Shown here piece by piece: positions 3,484 through 9,322 of a DNA stretch of 64,000 nt. Every line of letters starts with the position of its first letter. The stretch's first letter is position 1. The stretch is from assembly GCF_053078305.1 (NCBI RefSeq), contig NZ_CP166879.1; one strand, 5' to 3'. The position numbers and the translations under genes are program-made. The notes below the pieces were generated by a model that made no database searches, was not told the DNA's origin, and worked only from the letters and a program-made list of their open reading frames with translations.

Positions 3484-3729
3484 GTGAGTCTTATTGAAGA
3501 TTGGTCTTCCGCCGATATAAAGGCAGCCTTAGAAAAACGCGATACCAATTTGTCACGTTTATCAAGGGAAAATAATTTGCAGCCTAGGACTTTGGGTAAT
3601 GCTTTGCGAGTTCCCTACCCTAAAGGTGAAAAGATAATTGCTAGGGCTATAGGTGTAGAGCCACAGGTTATTTGGCCTACTAGATATGAACGACGTGCGC
3701 GGAGGAAATATGTGGGTTGCAATGACTGA
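3484..3729 (+). CDS. ner: Ner-like DNA-binding regulator
   Basis: 81 aa ORF resembling recalled Mu Ner (…LSRLSR…TLGNAL…PKGEKIIA…EPQVIWPTRY), first rightward gene. Confidence 0.8.
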   Translation: MSLIEDWSSADIKAALEKRDTNLSRLSRENNLQPRTLGNALRVPYPKGEKIIARAIGVEPQVIWPTRYERRARRKYVGCND

Positions 3730-5794
3730 ATTGATTTCATTCAGTGACCTACCTAGTTCTTTGGCAGGTCTGCACAAAAAAGCAAAGAGGGAAGCGTGGA
3801 AAACGCGGCTAAAACCAGGGGTAAAAGGGAAAGTTTTAGAGTGTGAAATAGGAGCTTTGCCTTTAACTGTTCAGCAGGCAGTACGCGAACGCCATGCCCT
3901 GCAACTGATGACGCAAAAAGCCGATGAATCACCGGCTCCGGTGGTGACAAAGGCCAGACGCTCACCTGCCGTGGTTGATGCGGTGGAGGCATATCGCGGA
4001 TCACCCCAACTGATGGTCGAACGCCTCAATGCCCTGACTGAAAATCAGCGCCAGGTGGCTGATGCACGAATCGCGATCGTCAGCGAAGTTCTGAAAGTCG
4101 CGCAACAACCTGGTTTCAGCTGTGCGAAGGCTATCCGGTTTATCGTTGACAACCTGGCACGTTCGCAGTTGGACGAGCGCATTGTGGCAATGGTTGAGAC
4201 GGCGAACGCCAAAAAGGGAAACAGCCGCGCGTTAAGTGAAATCACGCTGAAACGCTGGATTGCGGCCTTTAACAAGGCGCAGAACGCCGCTGAACGCCTG
4301 CTTTTACTGGCACCGGGTAAGCGCCAGGAAATAAAAGCCGAAGATATTAACTGGCTGCCCGAATTTCTGGCGCAGTATCGCCAGTCAAACGGCCGACCAA
4401 TGACCGAGGCTTACGAGGATTTTGTCGCTGAATGGCAGCACCGGCACGCCGATGAGCCTTATATGCTCGATATCATGCCGTCTTATGACACCATTCGCCG
4501 CGCAATGAAGAAACTGCCGGAAGTGGTGAAACAAAAAGGCCGGGTGACCGGCAGTGAATACCGCCAGCTTGAGGGATTCACGCGCCGCGACTGGTCAAAA
4601 ATGCCGGTGAATTATGTCTGGATTGGTGACGGTCACGGCATGAAGCTGAAATGCGCACACCCGGTTCACGGTCGGCCATTTGCACCGGAAGTGACCTTTG
4701 TTATCGACGGTGGCACGCGCTTTGTGGTGGGCTGGAGCCTTGACCTGGCTGAAAATGTTTTCGCCGTAGCCGGTGCCATACAGCACGGCATTCGCCATCA
4801 CGGCAAACCGTTTCTGTATTACTCGGATAACGGCTCCGGGGAAACCGCCGACATCCTGGATAAGGAGGTTGTGGGGATACTGCCGCGACTGGGGATTAAT
4901 CACCCGACCGGGATTGCCGGTAATCCGCAGGGACGAGGCATTATCGAACGGCTTAACCGCACATTACCGATGCGCATAGCCCGTAAATACCGCACCTATT
5001 TCGGGAAAGGTGCAGATCGCGAGACGTTACGCAAAACCAACCGCGATTTACGCTCGGCATTTACTGCCCTGCAACAGGGCAAACGGCTGAACGCCCGGCA
5101 GCAGTCAGCGATGCGTGATTTACCGTCCTGGTCTGAACTGATTGATGCCATTCGTGACGGTGTTGAGTGGTACAACAACCGGCCGCACGATGAATTACCG
5201 GTGAAGCCGAACGGCAAGCATTACAGCCCGGCGGAGTTCAGAAAAAAACGCCTGGCGGAAGAGGACACGGAAATTGAATGGCTGTCCGATGTTGAGCTGC
5301 GGGATATGTTCCGGCCGATGGTGGAACGCCCTGTAAGACGCTGTGAAATACGCTGGCTGAATAATATTTACTACGCGCCCGAGCTGCGTGACGAGCATGG
5401 TCGTAAGGTGCTTATCAGCTATGACATTCATGATGCCGAACGAATTACCGTACGTCGCCTGGATGGCAGCGTGATTTGCGAGGCGGTATGGGACGGTAAT
5501 AAACGCGAAGCCTTCCCGGTTAGCGCGGAATACTACAAACAGCAGCAACGCCTTAAAGGCATGCGTAAACGCGCAGAGGAAAAAATCCGTGATGCCGAGG
5601 ATGAGGTTGTCAACGTGCTGGAGCACAAGCCGCAGGAGCCCTGGCTGGAAAACATATACCGCCCTGTGGGTAATACGGTGACCGTTCAGCAACCGGTCGC
5701 TGACGATGAACCTGATGAAGAATACGAGCGTAATTTCCAGCGGGGATTGCAGTTGCTGGAAGCGAAATTAAAAGAAAATGACCCGCTGGCCTGA
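3710..5794 (+). CDS. Mu-type DDE transposase A
   Basis: ~700 aa ORF with repressor-like N-terminal DNA-binding domain; GGAGG at 3701-3705 favours the ATG at 3710 over the in-frame ATG at 3686. Confidence 0.85.
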   Translation: MWVAMTELISFSDLPSSLAGLHKKAKREAWKTRLKPGVKGKVLECEIGALPLTVQQAVRERHALQLMTQKADESPAPVVTKARRSPAVVDAVEAYRGSPQLMVERLNALTENQRQVADARIAIVSEVLKVAQQPGFSCAKAIRFIVDNLARSQLDERIVAMVETANAKKGNSRALSEITLKRWIAAFNKAQNAAERLLLLAPGKRQEIKAEDINWLPEFLAQYRQSNGRPMTEAYEDFVAEWQHRHADEPYMLDIMPSYDTIRRAMKKLPEVVKQKGRVTGSEYRQLEGFTRRDWSKMPVNYVWIGDGHGMKLKCAHPVHGRPFAPEVTFVIDGGTRFVVGWSLDLAENVFAVAGAIQHGIRHHGKPFLYYSDNGSGETADILDKEVVGILPRLGINHPTGIAGNPQGRGIIERLNRTLPMRIARKYRTYFGKGADRETLRKTNRDLRSAFTALQQGKRLNARQQSAMRDLPSWSELIDAIRDGVEWYNNRPHDELPVKPNGKHYSPAEFRKKRLAEEDTEIEWLSDVELRDMFRPMVERPVRRCEIRWLNNIYYAPELRDEHGRKVLISYDIHDAERITVRRLDGSVICEAVWDGNKREAFPVSAEYYKQQQRLKGMRKRAEEKIRDAEDEVVNVLEHKPQEPWLENIYRPVGNTVTVQQPVADDEPDEEYERNFQRGLQLLEAKLKENDPLA

Positions 5795-5865: not shown

Positions 5866-6798
5866 ATGACTGATATTAACGATGTAATCAAGACCATTGA
5901 TGAACTTATTGATGGCGGCGTACTGACGCAGTATGCCATCGCCAGAGAGGCGGGAATTTCCGACGGCACATTATCGGCTTTCCGTAAGGGAAAATATAAA
6001 GGCGATAACGCTGCTGTGGCTGCTTCCCTGCGTTCCTGGTATGAGAACTGGAATAAACAAAGCGCACTGCCGGAACCGCCGCAGTTTGTGGAAACGCAGA
6101 CAGTCCAGGAGCTGCGCACACTGTTTCAGGCGGTTCGTCTGATGGGCTGTATTAACGTTATTGTGGGCGTACCGGGTGTGGGTAAAACGGCCACTGCCCG
6201 TAATTACTGCCAGGAGCAACCAAACACCTGGATGATCACCCTGTCACCCGCGCACTCCAGCGTCACGGAGTGTCTGCTGGAGCTGGCCGATGCGCTGGGG
6301 ATTGATTACACCCGCGCGAACAAAGGGGCATTATCCCGCGCCATCCGCCGTCGCCTGATGGGAACGCGTGGACTGGTGATTGTGGATGAGGCGGATCATC
6401 TTGGTATTGACGGTCTGGAGCAACTCCGGGCAATTCAGGACGCCACGGGGATCGGGATGGTGCTTATTGGTAACCCGCGCGGATTGTTTAAAGGTGGACG
6501 CCGCGCCTTTGATGATTTATCGCGCCTGTTCAGCCGTCTTGCCCGTACAAAACAACTTCGCAAGGCCAAAAAGGCGGATGTGCTGGCCATTGCCAGTGCG
6601 TGGGGGATCAGTGGTGAGGCCGAGCTGGCCGTCATGCAGGCTATCGCTGAAAAGCCGGGAGCGTTACGCGTTCTGACACATACGCTTAACCAGGCGTGGC
6701 TCACCGCCAGCGGTGAAGGCGCGGCGCTGACAGAAAAACATATTAATGCGGCCTTTAAAGAGGTTTATACCAACCCTGAATTACTCTCACAGGTGTGA
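5866..6798 (+). CDS. MuB-like transposition ATPase / target DNA activator
   Basis: 310 aa with Walker A GVPGVGKT and Walker B LVIVDEAD, immediately after the transposase. Confidence 0.85.
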   Translation: MTDINDVIKTIDELIDGGVLTQYAIAREAGISDGTLSAFRKGKYKGDNAAVAASLRSWYENWNKQSALPEPPQFVETQTVQELRTLFQAVRLMGCINVIVGVPGVGKTATARNYCQEQPNTWMITLSPAHSSVTECLLELADALGIDYTRANKGALSRAIRRRLMGTRGLVIVDEADHLGIDGLEQLRAIQDATGIGMVLIGNPRGLFKGGRRAFDDLSRLFSRLARTKQLRKAKKADVLAIASAWGISGEAELAVMQAIAEKPGALRVLTHTLNQAWLTASGEGAALTEKHINAAFKEVYTNPELLSQV

Positions 6799-7022
6799 TT
6801 ATGGCGGTATTTAATATTCCTGATATTTACGGACGCTTTTACCTGGTTAATTTCGATAACGTGAAGGTGATTTCACTGGCCGAAAATAAAGAATGTGGCG
6901 ATTTACTTTTTGAATTTAATGACCGCACACGAATGGTGATATCTGCCGGACTTGATCGCGAAGGTGCGACAGACGTTTACAGCGGAATATGCCGTTCTGT
7001 TGGTGCGAAACAAGTCAGCTAA
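6795..7022 (+). CDS. hypothetical early-region protein
   Basis: 75 aa ORF overlapping the B stop codon. Confidence 0.35.
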   Translation: MIMAVFNIPDIYGRFYLVNFDNVKVISLAENKECGDLLFEFNDRTRMVISAGLDREGATDVYSGICRSVGAKQVS

Positions 7023-7289
7023 ATGAGGTGTTATATGAATATGCAATCCTGCGGTAACAAAATGAATTTATTCGACTCCCTGAACAGCGCGCGCCGTCTG
7101 ACCGAACTTGCCGGTGCGGTACTGGAACGCAGTAAGCGCTATCCGCAACGTTTTGCACTGAAAACCACGCCGCCGGTAGGCAACGTGCAGGGAACCGGTG
7201 AAATTGAAATCACCATACAGACCAACGGCCTGCGCCGCCGTGTGAAGGCCACCCGCATCAGCGGCTGCACGGTTTACTGGGAGGTGTGA
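7023..7289 (+). CDS. hypothetical early-region protein
   Basis: 88 aa ORF; true start may be an internal Met. Confidence 0.35.
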   Translation: MRCYMNMQSCGNKMNLFDSLNSARRLTELAGAVLERSKRYPQRFALKTTPPVGNVQGTGEIEITIQTNGLRRRVKATRISGCTVYWEV

Positions 7290-7366
7290 GGTGAAAAAAA
7301 AATCTCATTGCATGGGCGTGGTCGAGTGGTCTTATTGAGTTTGGTTACGTCCTGCCGGAAGGTGCA

Positions 7367-7573
7367 TTGCCGATAGTTGCCGGAAAGCCTGCCACGGTAC
7401 GGCATGTGATTGAGGTTATGGCGCGTCATGGACGTGATGAACAGGAGCAGTTACTGGTTCCGGGGATACCGGAAGCGGTGACGGAGGAAGAAGCCTTTAA
7501 TGCCATGATTCGGTTCTGCCGTGAGGTCAGACGCCGGGTCAGTTATCCAAACAGAACGAGGACCAGAGGATGA
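7367..7573 (+). CDS. hypothetical early-region protein
   Basis: 68 aa ORF, stop overlaps next start. Confidence 0.35.
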   Translation: MPIVAGKPATVRHVIEVMARHGRDEQEQLLVPGIPEAVTEEEAFNAMIRFCREVRRRVSYPNRTRTRG

Positions 7574-7842
7574 GTAAAGTCGTACGCATTATTTTCGAAT
7601 ACAAGGAGCACGTTATCCATAAAAACGCGGATGGAACAGTGCGCATGGGGATAAGTCTGGACATACGTTCAACCGGGATAAAGCAGAAAGGTGATGGACC
7701 TGCCATGATTTTTGGGGTGGTTATGCTCGCGGAAAGCAGAGACTTTGCTGAACTTGTGGCAATGAAAGCCAGTGCGCTCATGAAAGATATGAGCATGCGT
7801 TCCGGGGTTATTAAAGGTAATGAATTTAATCAGCAGGGGTAA
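7570..7842 (+). CDS. hypothetical small protein, tandem paralog 1
   Basis: 90 aa; N-terminus MSKVVRIIFEYKEHV parallels the next ORF. Confidence 0.45.
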   Translation: MSKVVRIIFEYKEHVIHKNADGTVRMGISLDIRSTGIKQKGDGPAMIFGVVMLAESRDFAELVAMKASALMKDMSMRSGVIKGNEFNQQG

Positions 7843-7846
7843 TTCC

Positions 7847-8140
7847 ATGAGCAAAGTACGCGTTATTTTTGAATTTAAGCATGTTTCGCATGACGAAAAA
7901 CCGGCAGGCAATGACTGTGTTGAAGTGCATGAAAAGATTGGTGTGGATGTAAAAACAGAACGTGATACGAATAACAGGCCGACGTCACTCTGTGACGTTT
8001 ATGTAAGTATTCTCCAGTATCACAGTCCTGAAATTATTCAGTTTCTCTCAGCGGAATTTCAGGCATCTGTACAGGCTTTTGGGGCGGATGCCATCATTAA
8101 ACGCCACCGCGTGCATAAAGCATCAGGCACACTGCAATAA
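7847..8140 (+). CDS. hypothetical small protein, tandem paralog 2
   Basis: Starts MSKVRVIFEFKHV at the ATG at 7847 (ORF track start 7820 is further upstream in frame). Confidence 0.45.
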   Translation: MSKVRVIFEFKHVSHDEKPAGNDCVEVHEKIGVDVKTERDTNNRPTSLCDVYVSILQYHSPEIIQFLSAEFQASVQAFGADAIIKRHRVHKASGTLQ

Positions 8141-8151
8141 GGAAAAACAAA

Positions 8152-8682
8152 ATGGCAAAACGCGTTACAAAATTAAAGGCCGCAGCAGAGGCGGCACCGC
8201 AGACCCGTGAAGAGGTCAGCCGCGATATCCGCACCCTGGGCGATATTCAGCGAGAGGCGCTGCGCCTGGAAACAGCGATGAATGATGAAGTGGCAGAAAT
8301 CACCGCCCGTTATACGCCGCAGATTGAAAACCTTAAAAAAGAAATCAAAGTGCTTTTTAAGGGGATTCAGGACTGGTGCAAAACCAACCGTGATGAGCTG
8401 ACGAACGGCGGCAAAACCAAAACTGCCAATCTGACCACCGGAACAGTGTCATGGCGGCTGGGAAATCCATCATGCAGCGTCAGCCGTGATGTGGAAGGTG
8501 TGATTGAAATGCTGCGCCGTATGGGGCTTGAGCGATTCATCCGCACGAAAGAGGAAGTGAACAAGGAAGCGGTCCTGGCGGAGCCGGATGCAGTGAAAGG
8601 CATTGCCGGTATTAAGGTGAATAAAGGCGCTGAAAGTTTTTATGTCGAGCCTTTTGAACAGGACGCCGGACTGAATAAATAA
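8152..8682 (+). CDS. gam: Gam-like host-nuclease inhibitor (DNA end-binding)
   Basis: 176 aa with strong resemblance to recalled Mu Gam (…IGDIQREALRLETAMNDEVAEITARY…NRDELTNGGKTKTANLTTGTVSWR…ERFIRTKEEVNKEA…). Confidence 0.85.
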   Translation: MAKRVTKLKAAAEAAPQTREEVSRDIRTLGDIQREALRLETAMNDEVAEITARYTPQIENLKKEIKVLFKGIQDWCKTNRDELTNGGKTKTANLTTGTVSWRLGNPSCSVSRDVEGVIEMLRRMGLERFIRTKEEVNKEAVLAEPDAVKGIAGIKVNKGAESFYVEPFEQDAGLNK

Positions 8683-8779
8683 CACCGCATTAAATCTTTA
8701 AATATCACATCGTTTTAAGTATGGCGCTCGCGTCAGGGGACTGTCTGCGCCTGTAAACTGAAAATAAGGAACAGGATAT

Positions 8780-9322
8780 ATGGCATATTTTTATTTCAAA
8801 TTAGACCGTGTGCAGACAAATAAATATTTCACCAAATATCAACAGACTGTTTTACCGCTACGCAACAGTATTCTTCGGGCATTACTGAAAAATACAGGCG
8901 CTGCCGGATTGCGCTTAAAGCCGTTTGCCATGGACGTAATCAGTGAGTTTTATTTTTCTGGTACTCTGCCTGCGGGCTGGCGTAAGCGCGATGATGTGGC
9001 TTTTATCGGGGACGGACCGTGCTTTATTGCCAGACCTGATGAGTCATGCCCTGAAGGACCGGCGATTGCCGCAATGATTGAAGCCGCTGAACGCGAGTTA
9101 AGAAAGCGTCCTGATTTCCTTGTCTGGCTCTGTGAAAAGCTGGGGGTAATGAGAATCCCCTCCATGTTTAACATGGACTCCTGGTGGACCCCGTCGCTCT
9201 CCCGTGATGCCCTGTGCGTGGTGTTTAAAGTAGGCGCTTATGGCAGGGAAATAAAAGGGGGTATTCCTGAAGAATGCCAGGAGATTAAACATTCTGAATA
9301 TGTGGCGCTGACGGAGGAATAA
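8780..9322 (+). CDS. hypothetical protein
   Basis: 180 aa ORF, no recognised motif. Confidence 0.4.
   Translation: MAYFYFKLDRVQTNKYFTKYQQTVLPLRNSILRALLKNTGAAGLRLKPFAMDVISEFYFSGTLPAGWRKRDDVAFIGDGPCFIARPDESCPEGPAIAAMIEAAERELRKRPDFLVWLCEKLGVMRIPSMFNMDSWWTPSLSRDALCVVFKVGAYGREIKGGIPEECQEIKHSEYVALTEE

Follow-up and report, generated by a model that had tools for sequence, protein, structure and literature searches.

Immediately upstream of gam, the early operon of the E. coli Mu-like prophage studied here carries two small open reading frames, ORF1 and ORF2, whose products start with MSKVVRIIFEYKEHV and MSKVRVIFEFKHV, respectively, and are both labelled "hypothetical protein" in RefSeq. The resemblance of the two starts raises the question of whether both genes descend from a common ancestor and which function they might serve. 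A sequence-only reading of the window, i.e. of the entire analysed stretch of 64,000 nucleotides (contig NZ_CP166879.1 of RefSeq assembly GCF_053078305.1), had regarded them as tandem, diverged paralogs and had considered this a pattern frequently encountered in inhibitor families under arms-race selection. The evidence described below leads us to slightly favour the view that ORF1 and ORF2 are anciently diverged tandem copies within one family of small (~70-100 aa) early accessory proteins of enterobacterial Mu-like phages, which probably also comprises Mu E6.

Both ORFs are translated members of the early operon (Table 1), translationally coupled within it and co-transcribed. The ATG of ORF1 overlaps the stop codon of the upstream gene (ATGA, 7570-7573), the stop of ORF1 (7842) is separated by a gap of 4 nt from the start of ORF2 (7847), which is preceded by AGGGG, and neither promoter-like nor terminator-like sites are present on the + strand within 6700-9000, and thus none between the two genes. 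The start of ORF2 at 7847 is the one used in RefSeq and by all homologues, while the program-made list of open reading frames had used an upstream ATG at 7820. The segment 7570-8140 is 100% identical with chromosomes of O157:H7-type strains. Among 5426 complete E. coli genomes, 230 (~4%) contain it, 222 of these with a coverage of at least 80%.

Table 1. Features in and around the early operon of the Mu-like prophage (positions in the window).
Feature	Position	Strand	Remarks
Transposase A	3686-5794	+	Early operon
B	5866-6798	+	Early operon
phrog_3375 gene	6795-7022	+	Between B and Kil
Kil homologue	7035-7289	+	phrog_2679, E = 7.8e-46; opens the variable early segment containing ORF1 and ORF2
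phrog_1518 homologue	7291-7573	+	Upstream neighbour of ORF1; motif AWAWSSGLIEFG...LLVPGIPEA; frameshifted in the window
ORF1	7570-7842	+	90 aa, pI 9.45; phrog_4107, E = 2e-61; first tandem copy
Shared 5' motif, copy 1	7570-7600	+	Codes for MSKVVRIIFE (beta-strand 1); delimits the allelic cassette of ORF1 on the left
ORF2	7847-8140	+	97 aa, pI 6.6 (6.58); phrog_2230, E = 1.7e-39; second tandem copy
Shared 5' motif, copy 2	7847-7874	+	Codes for MSKVRVIFE; delimits the a/b cassette of ORF2 on the left; deletion junction in L021
ORF2 body	7875-8140	+	Allelic cassette, a-type in the window
gam	8152-8682	+	Mu Gam-like DNA-end-binding protein; PF07352, E = 1.5e-41; phrog_491; right conserved flank
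Mu gp10-, gp11- and gp12-like genes	3' of gam	+	Early operon

The motif common to both proteins reads MSKVVRIIFEYKEHVIH in ORF1 and MSKVRVIFEFKHVSH in ORF2. BLASTP aligns the two sequences over their N-terminal 15-17 residues only (12/17 identical, E = 0.001), and as the local score is reached by just 5 of 5000 shuffles (p about 0.001), the similarity of the motif exceeds what is expected by chance. Once the motif is removed, the pairwise similarity of the remaining parts of ORF1 and ORF2 is nil, with 988 of 2000 shuffles reaching the score. At the DNA level, the two 5' ends align with a gap-free core of 28 bases following a single 3-nt gap, and eight of the eleven identical motif residues are encoded by the same codon, compared to 4.8 expected (P = 0.04). 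Coordinates, + strand orientation and statistics hence confirm the description of two tandem ORFs directly 5' of gam which share an N-terminal motif and diverge beyond it.

While pairwise alignment does not bear out the proposed paralogy, the comparison of profiles and predicted structures does. Using hhalign, shallow alignments of the ORF1 and ORF2 families yielded a probability of 84%, and alignments enriched with divergent members which came from a whole-library profile search (ORF1: P0066; ORF2: P0071 plus numerous Salmonella proteins) yielded 93-94% (E 1e-7 to 4e-7, 63-77 columns), these values having been obtained with shallow profiles (Neff about 1.3-2.7). Control comparisons with reversed profiles gave 0.1% and in no case more than 0.4%. 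Trimming the motif from both profiles left the register unchanged, with strand 2 aligned to strand 2 and helix start to helix start (E = 0.006). When the 4764 six-frame ORFs of all loci were searched, the best non-self match of the ORF2 HMM is ORF1 (E = 5e-4), and that of the ORF1 HMM is an E6-type protein (E = 1e-3) followed by an ORF2-type protein (E = 0.015); in both searches all remaining ORFs rank below the members of the family. The Salmonella ORF2-type subfamily taken on its own displays no link to ORF1 or E6 (hhalign probability 2-6%).

AlphaFold2 models of the two proteins were calculated from alignments which were disjoint by design, that of ORF2 containing its own family and that of ORF1 its own as well as the Mu E6 family but no ORF2 sequence. 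In the model of ORF2 (pLDDT 82) the secondary structure elements are E4-21, E24-39, H48-58 and H60-77, in that of ORF1 (pLDDT 79) E6-18, E24-35 and H44-73. Structure prediction thus leads in both cases to a long, two-stranded beta-hairpin which is followed by, and packed on, a helix of ~30 residues, with matching elements and boundaries. Compared by these elements and boundaries, ORF1 and ORF2 are predicted to adopt the same hairpin-helix fold. A search of BFVD with the ORF1 model retrieved no significant viral model. Together, the profile and structure data support the view that ORF1 and ORF2 are ancient tandem paralogs of ~20% identity, the duplication not being recent.

The predicted architecture is mirrored by the distribution of sequence conservation. 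We retrieved ~40 related E. coli loci via Gam, in which length and frame of both ORFs are conserved. Pairwise Nei-Gojobori comparison of 18 distinct ORF1 alleles and 23 distinct ORF2 alleles results in dN/dS values of 0.29 and 0.35, respectively, with gam at 0.09. In both paralogs strand 1, which harbours the MSKV-R-IIFE motif, and the helix are conserved, while strand 2, the subsequent loop and the C-terminal tail evolve fast, the region-wise ratios amounting to 0.11-0.27 for the helix as against 0.6-0.95 for these three variable regions. According to these crude region-wise Nei-Gojobori ratios, dN/dS exceeds 1 in no region, and we rejected positive selection on ORF1 and ORF2 for this reason. 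In a few loci (L041, L042 and L022) disrupted copies occur, with 15 or 61 aa left of ORF2 and 41 or 78 aa of ORF1. Since L042 in addition contains an A9 tract of the kind described below for the phrog_1518 gene, assembly quality may explain the disrupted copy found there.

A third, better known protein appears to belong to this family. Phage Mu E6 (AF083977 4784-5047, NP_050611.1, Mup07) starts with MAKVIIEIKNTVSG..., comprises 87 aa and is thus similar in size and start to ORF1 and ORF2. BLASTP of ORF1 or ORF2 against Mu E6 yields nothing usable. Compared with phrog_2230, the PHROG of ORF2, Mu E6 is matched over its full length with E = 0.009. By hhalign, the E6 family is related to the ORF1 family with a probability of 76-78% (E 2e-5), also after omission of the motif, and to the ORF2 family with 65-74% (50-74% over all profiles, E 3e-5 to 2e-4), values which drop to 43% (ORF1) and 50-56% (ORF2) once close relatives from Mu, SfMu and Yersinia phages are added to the E6 profile. 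The E6 HMM lists all ORF1 proteins first, then the ORF2 proteins and L044a, followed by the first unrelated ORF at E ~1, and in reciprocal HMM searches of the 4764 six-frame ORFs the top non-self matches of each family invariably belong to the two others (E 4e-4 to 0.06). On these profile comparisons, ORF1, ORF2 and Mu E6 probably form one E6-like superfamily. In common with Mu E6 they have the position within the early operon between kil and gam, the N-terminal strand motif (MAKVIIEIK in E6), profile alignments of nearly full length in one and the same register, and the character of a small, non-enzymatic accessory gene. They differ in that sequence identity amounts to just 16-21% and the homology probability to 43-78%, in that E6 is present in Mu as a single copy with E7 and E8 between it and gam, and in that the O-antigen phenotype described below is known for Mup07 alone. 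Although ORF1 and ORF2 match phrog_4107 and phrog_2230 over their entire length and with high significance, PHROGs keeps phrog_4107, phrog_2230 and phrog_10252 (Mu E6) as three families and contains no record of the relationship or of the tandem arrangement of phrog_4107 and phrog_2230. The pair would best be classed with the Mu E6/Gnarl2 kind, which received its name only recently, as two new and distant members arranged in tandem.

Mup07 is identical with gnarl2 (Silas et al., Nat Commun 2025, PMC12373910), whose product was reported to cause a downshift of O-antigen bands and a 1e5-1e6-fold sensitisation to T5 in ECOR strains, a phenotype which stems from over-expression in heterologous hosts (PMC12373910). 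Since sequence identity is only ~20% and the phenotype was obtained by over-expression in such hosts, the transfer of function from Gnarl2 to ORF1 and ORF2 is weak. Gnarl1 and Gnarl3 offer an analogy insofar as they are small phage proteins which alter LPS without being enzymes; they originate, however, from lytic phages, and no sequence relationship is claimed. Gnarl3 co-purifies with GalU, and over-expression of galU reverses its effect (PMC12373910). As ORF1 and ORF2 are too small for enzymes and match no enzyme family, a stoichiometric mode of action is the likeliest. They would bind host proteins shortly after induction or infection, without acting as enzymes. A scaffold or an oligomer interface would be provided by the conserved strand 1 and helix, while targets would be recognised by a surface composed of the variable parts (strand 2, loop and tail). 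Following the Gnarl2 analogy, the likeliest class of targets would be cell-envelope, LPS or O-antigen biosynthesis; we propose LPS or O-antigen biosynthesis as target class only tentatively and consider it possible rather than likely. The two copies along with their alleles may cover different host variants or different targets.

A competing view, in line with the inhibitor suggestion of the sequence-only reading, is that ORF1 and ORF2 inhibit host nucleases or anti-phage defence systems alongside Gam. They lie directly in front of gam in the same operon, they are early genes of small size, fast evolution and allelic diversity, and the family of the upstream neighbour, phrog_1518, is labelled "host nuclease inhibitor" in PHROGs. 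The adjacency to gam is, however, not conserved, given that E7 and E8 intervene in Mu and that the gene next to the ORF2-type gene on its 3' side codes for a DUF3164 protein instead of Gam in Salmonella prophages. With pI values of 9.45 and 6.58 and net charges of +3 and -1, ORF1 and ORF2 are not acidic DNA mimics of the Ocr/ArdA-like type. Sequence profile searches of Pfam, NCBIfam and the PDB yielded no match to any characterised family or solved structure, the only PHROG matches being families of unknown function, and the single characterised relative has been assigned to envelope modification and to no specific defence system. We therefore regard a role as nuclease or defence inhibitors as unlikely. 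The arms-race claim is supported in part, in that the probable homologue Mu E6 is a host-modulating accessory gene, gnarl2, and that deeply diverged allelic cassettes reside in near-identical backbones (see below); against it speaks that dN/dS never exceeds 1 and that nothing but adjacency ties the pair to nucleases or Gam.

The allelic cassettes become apparent when related loci are compared with the window. L005 is ~100% identical to it across 7365-7875 and 8145-9322 and drops to 43-77% per 30-nt bin within ORF2; L011 exhibits the same pattern over the body of ORF1 (7605-7815). The left boundaries directly follow the shared motif, as ORF1 alleles diverge from ~7605 and identity within ORF2 falls at ~7875. 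Alleles a and b of ORF2 share 58-60% protein identity with dS near 1, while dS in codons 1-11 is as low as 0.044 because these codons belong to the conserved flank. P0046 represents a natural chimera consisting of a b-type hairpin and an a-type helix. In L021 (3796-4188) a single gene is found in which the upstream region and ribosome-binding site of ORF1 are fused to a b-type ORF2 body, the junction falling inside the shared 5' motif. This is the structure which recombination between the two motif copies with loss of ORF1 would leave behind, and among ~38 loci with enough sequence ORF1 is absent from L021 only. These comparisons show that each gene is an exchangeable allelic cassette whose left recombination joint is the DNA encoding the shared motif, and that recombination between the motif copies can delete one gene. 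The situation resembles mosaic-boundary linkers and accessory hot spots of temperate phages with respect to divergent alleles, near-identical flanks and sharp boundaries. It is unlike mosaic linkers in that the joint lies within coding sequence, namely the conserved first ~10 codons, and in that it is doubled in tandem, so that it drives copy-number change too.

The exact coincidence of the cassette boundaries and of the L021 junction with the motif suggests another explanation, according to which ORF1 and ORF2 are not paralogs at all and owe their common start to a recombination linker or gene-conversion tract joining unrelated cassettes, comparable to the boundary sequences of mosaic phage modules. 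The missing pairwise similarity of the gene bodies, the low synonymous divergence of ORF2 codons 1-11 and the excess of identical codons in the motif are in line with it. On the other hand, the profile alignments span most of the length and keep their register without the motif, the independently calculated AF2 models agree in topology and element boundaries, and distant relatives retain the motif as protein while their DNA differs (MAKVIIEIKN in Mu E6, MSKIVIELKD in L044a). We consider an exclusive linker origin quite unlikely. Both ideas can be reconciled if the genes are homologous and their conserved start also serves as recombination joint.

The allele classes of ORF1 and ORF2 are found together in each of the four possible combinations (16, 12, 4 and 2 loci). 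A co-variation of alleles, as would go along with an allele-specific heterodimer, is hence not seen. As a separate observation, the first tandem copy is basic and the second neutral or acidic, the pI of ORF2 being 6.6 or 5.5, and in the L044 pair (4137-4352 and 4352-4582) a pI of 9.26 is followed by one of 4.6. Such a basic/acidic pairing might hint at hetero-oligomers, yet the alleles reassort freely.

The free variation of copy number and alleles between near-identical prophages also bears on the idea that ORF1 and ORF2 serve Mu transposition, replication or regulation in an accessory role, for instance as small modulators of the transpososome which bind DNA or protein. The functions which older genetic work placed in the semi-essential early region of Mu would be of this accessory kind, the two genes closely follow A, B and kil within the early operon, and ORF1 is basic. 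A match to a DNA-binding motif or fold was, however, found for neither protein, and the observed variation characterises dispensable accessory genes rather than core machinery, which renders this role very unlikely. That one of the two ORFs is a non-coding artefact, as their small size and the missing Pfam and NCBIfam matches might suggest, can be practically dismissed, as dN/dS ~0.3 over many alleles indicates purifying selection on both, each has a PHROG family of its own, length and frame are conserved in ~40 loci and both AF2 models are confident. Returning to ORF1 and ORF2 as tandem copies of an E6-like family, we would like to add a more speculative picture, in its entirety rather improbable, in which the locus is a two-slot site of cassette exchange: the first ~10 codons would act both as N-terminal strand and as recombination dock, alleles of Gnarl2-type envelope modifiers would be swapped, duplicated and deleted there, and the two copies may hetero-oligomerise or hit different O-antigen or LPS proteins, thereby adapting the prophage to the host serotype.

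Inspection of other Mu-like phages for copy number showed that the slot between kil and gam accommodates one or two genes of such kind (Mu, L044, L077, L080, L083 and L085). L044 contains two of them in tandem directly 5' of gam and L083 a diverged pair of ORF1-type and ORF2-type genes, while L085 and L086, both from Salmonella, possess one ORF2-type copy each. A single gene with a related start occupies the slot in L077 and L080. The families of L080/L077 and of L044b (MAKQVITI...) are linked to ORF1, ORF2 and E6 by nothing beyond the N-terminal motif and were not counted as members. The whole-library profile search, covering 1.84 billion representatives, returned 18 matches, three of which (P0068, P0069 and P0072) were discarded as low-complexity or repeat false positives. 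A tblastn search with ORF1 and ORF2 against 50,697 phage records retrieved only two Stx phages carrying an inserted Mu-like element. The family is thus tiny and confined to Mu-like elements. The members identified so far belong to genomes of Escherichia and Salmonella and to a few metagenomes, and phages of Shigella and Yersinia possess E6-type copies as well.

If ORF1 and ORF2 indeed belong with Gnarl2, the family gains a predicted hairpin-helix architecture and a map of conserved (strand 1, helix) versus fast-evolving positions (strand 2, loop, tail). Provided such membership, it would also gain natural allelic series as well as variants with one or two copies, present in ~4% of the complete E. 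coli genomes, O157:H7-type strains among them. These would be of concrete use in the search for the host target and in tests of O-antigen remodelling by Mu-like prophages in pathogenic E. coli. The locus moreover constitutes a small and clean example of a coding-sequence motif which doubles as a recombination joint.

Several observations concern Salmonella relatives and neighbouring genes. A DUF3164 protein (PF11363) takes the position of Gam in L085 (4303-4941), L086 (4303-4941) and L084 (719-1336), i.e. in Salmonella and one metagenomic Mu-like element, where it directly follows an E6-type or ORF2-type gene, which suggests that this protein and Gam are functionally interchangeable modules. 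The Salmonella proteins P0121, P0126, P0135, P0138, P0141 and P0143 are of ORF2-type, comprise 70-82 aa and lack the N-terminal motif (e.g. MKEKRFRGGVEILDG...); these entries are probably frameshifted or start at a wrongly called codon. Within the Salmonella subfamily, hairpin tip and loop (~residues 24-48) are hypervariable, start and helix nearly fixed.

The phrog_1518 homologue upstream of ORF1 begins in the window with a GTG followed by a tract of nine A (7294-7302), while eight A are present in 21 of 23 related loci. The additional A puts the gene out of frame just after its start and leaves an ORF of 68 aa from a TTG at 7367; it could reflect a true frameshift, homopolymer slippage or a sequencing error. 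Most of this gene (7293-7503) is cleanly absent from L010, L022, L023, L035, L038 and L083, which are otherwise collinear, and its loss gives rise to N-terminally extended ORF1 calls of 116 aa, such as P0001 and P0013. Support for the PHROGs label of the family was not found here; its motif AWASGLIEFG...LLVPG(I/V)PEA is kept across Mu-like phages from E. coli, Salmonella and metagenomes. Finally, the phrog_3375 gene which follows B (6795-7022) shows 63-93% identity per 30-nt bin to its counterpart in L033 between near-identical neighbours, and cassette-like variation may extend along the entire segment from B to gam.
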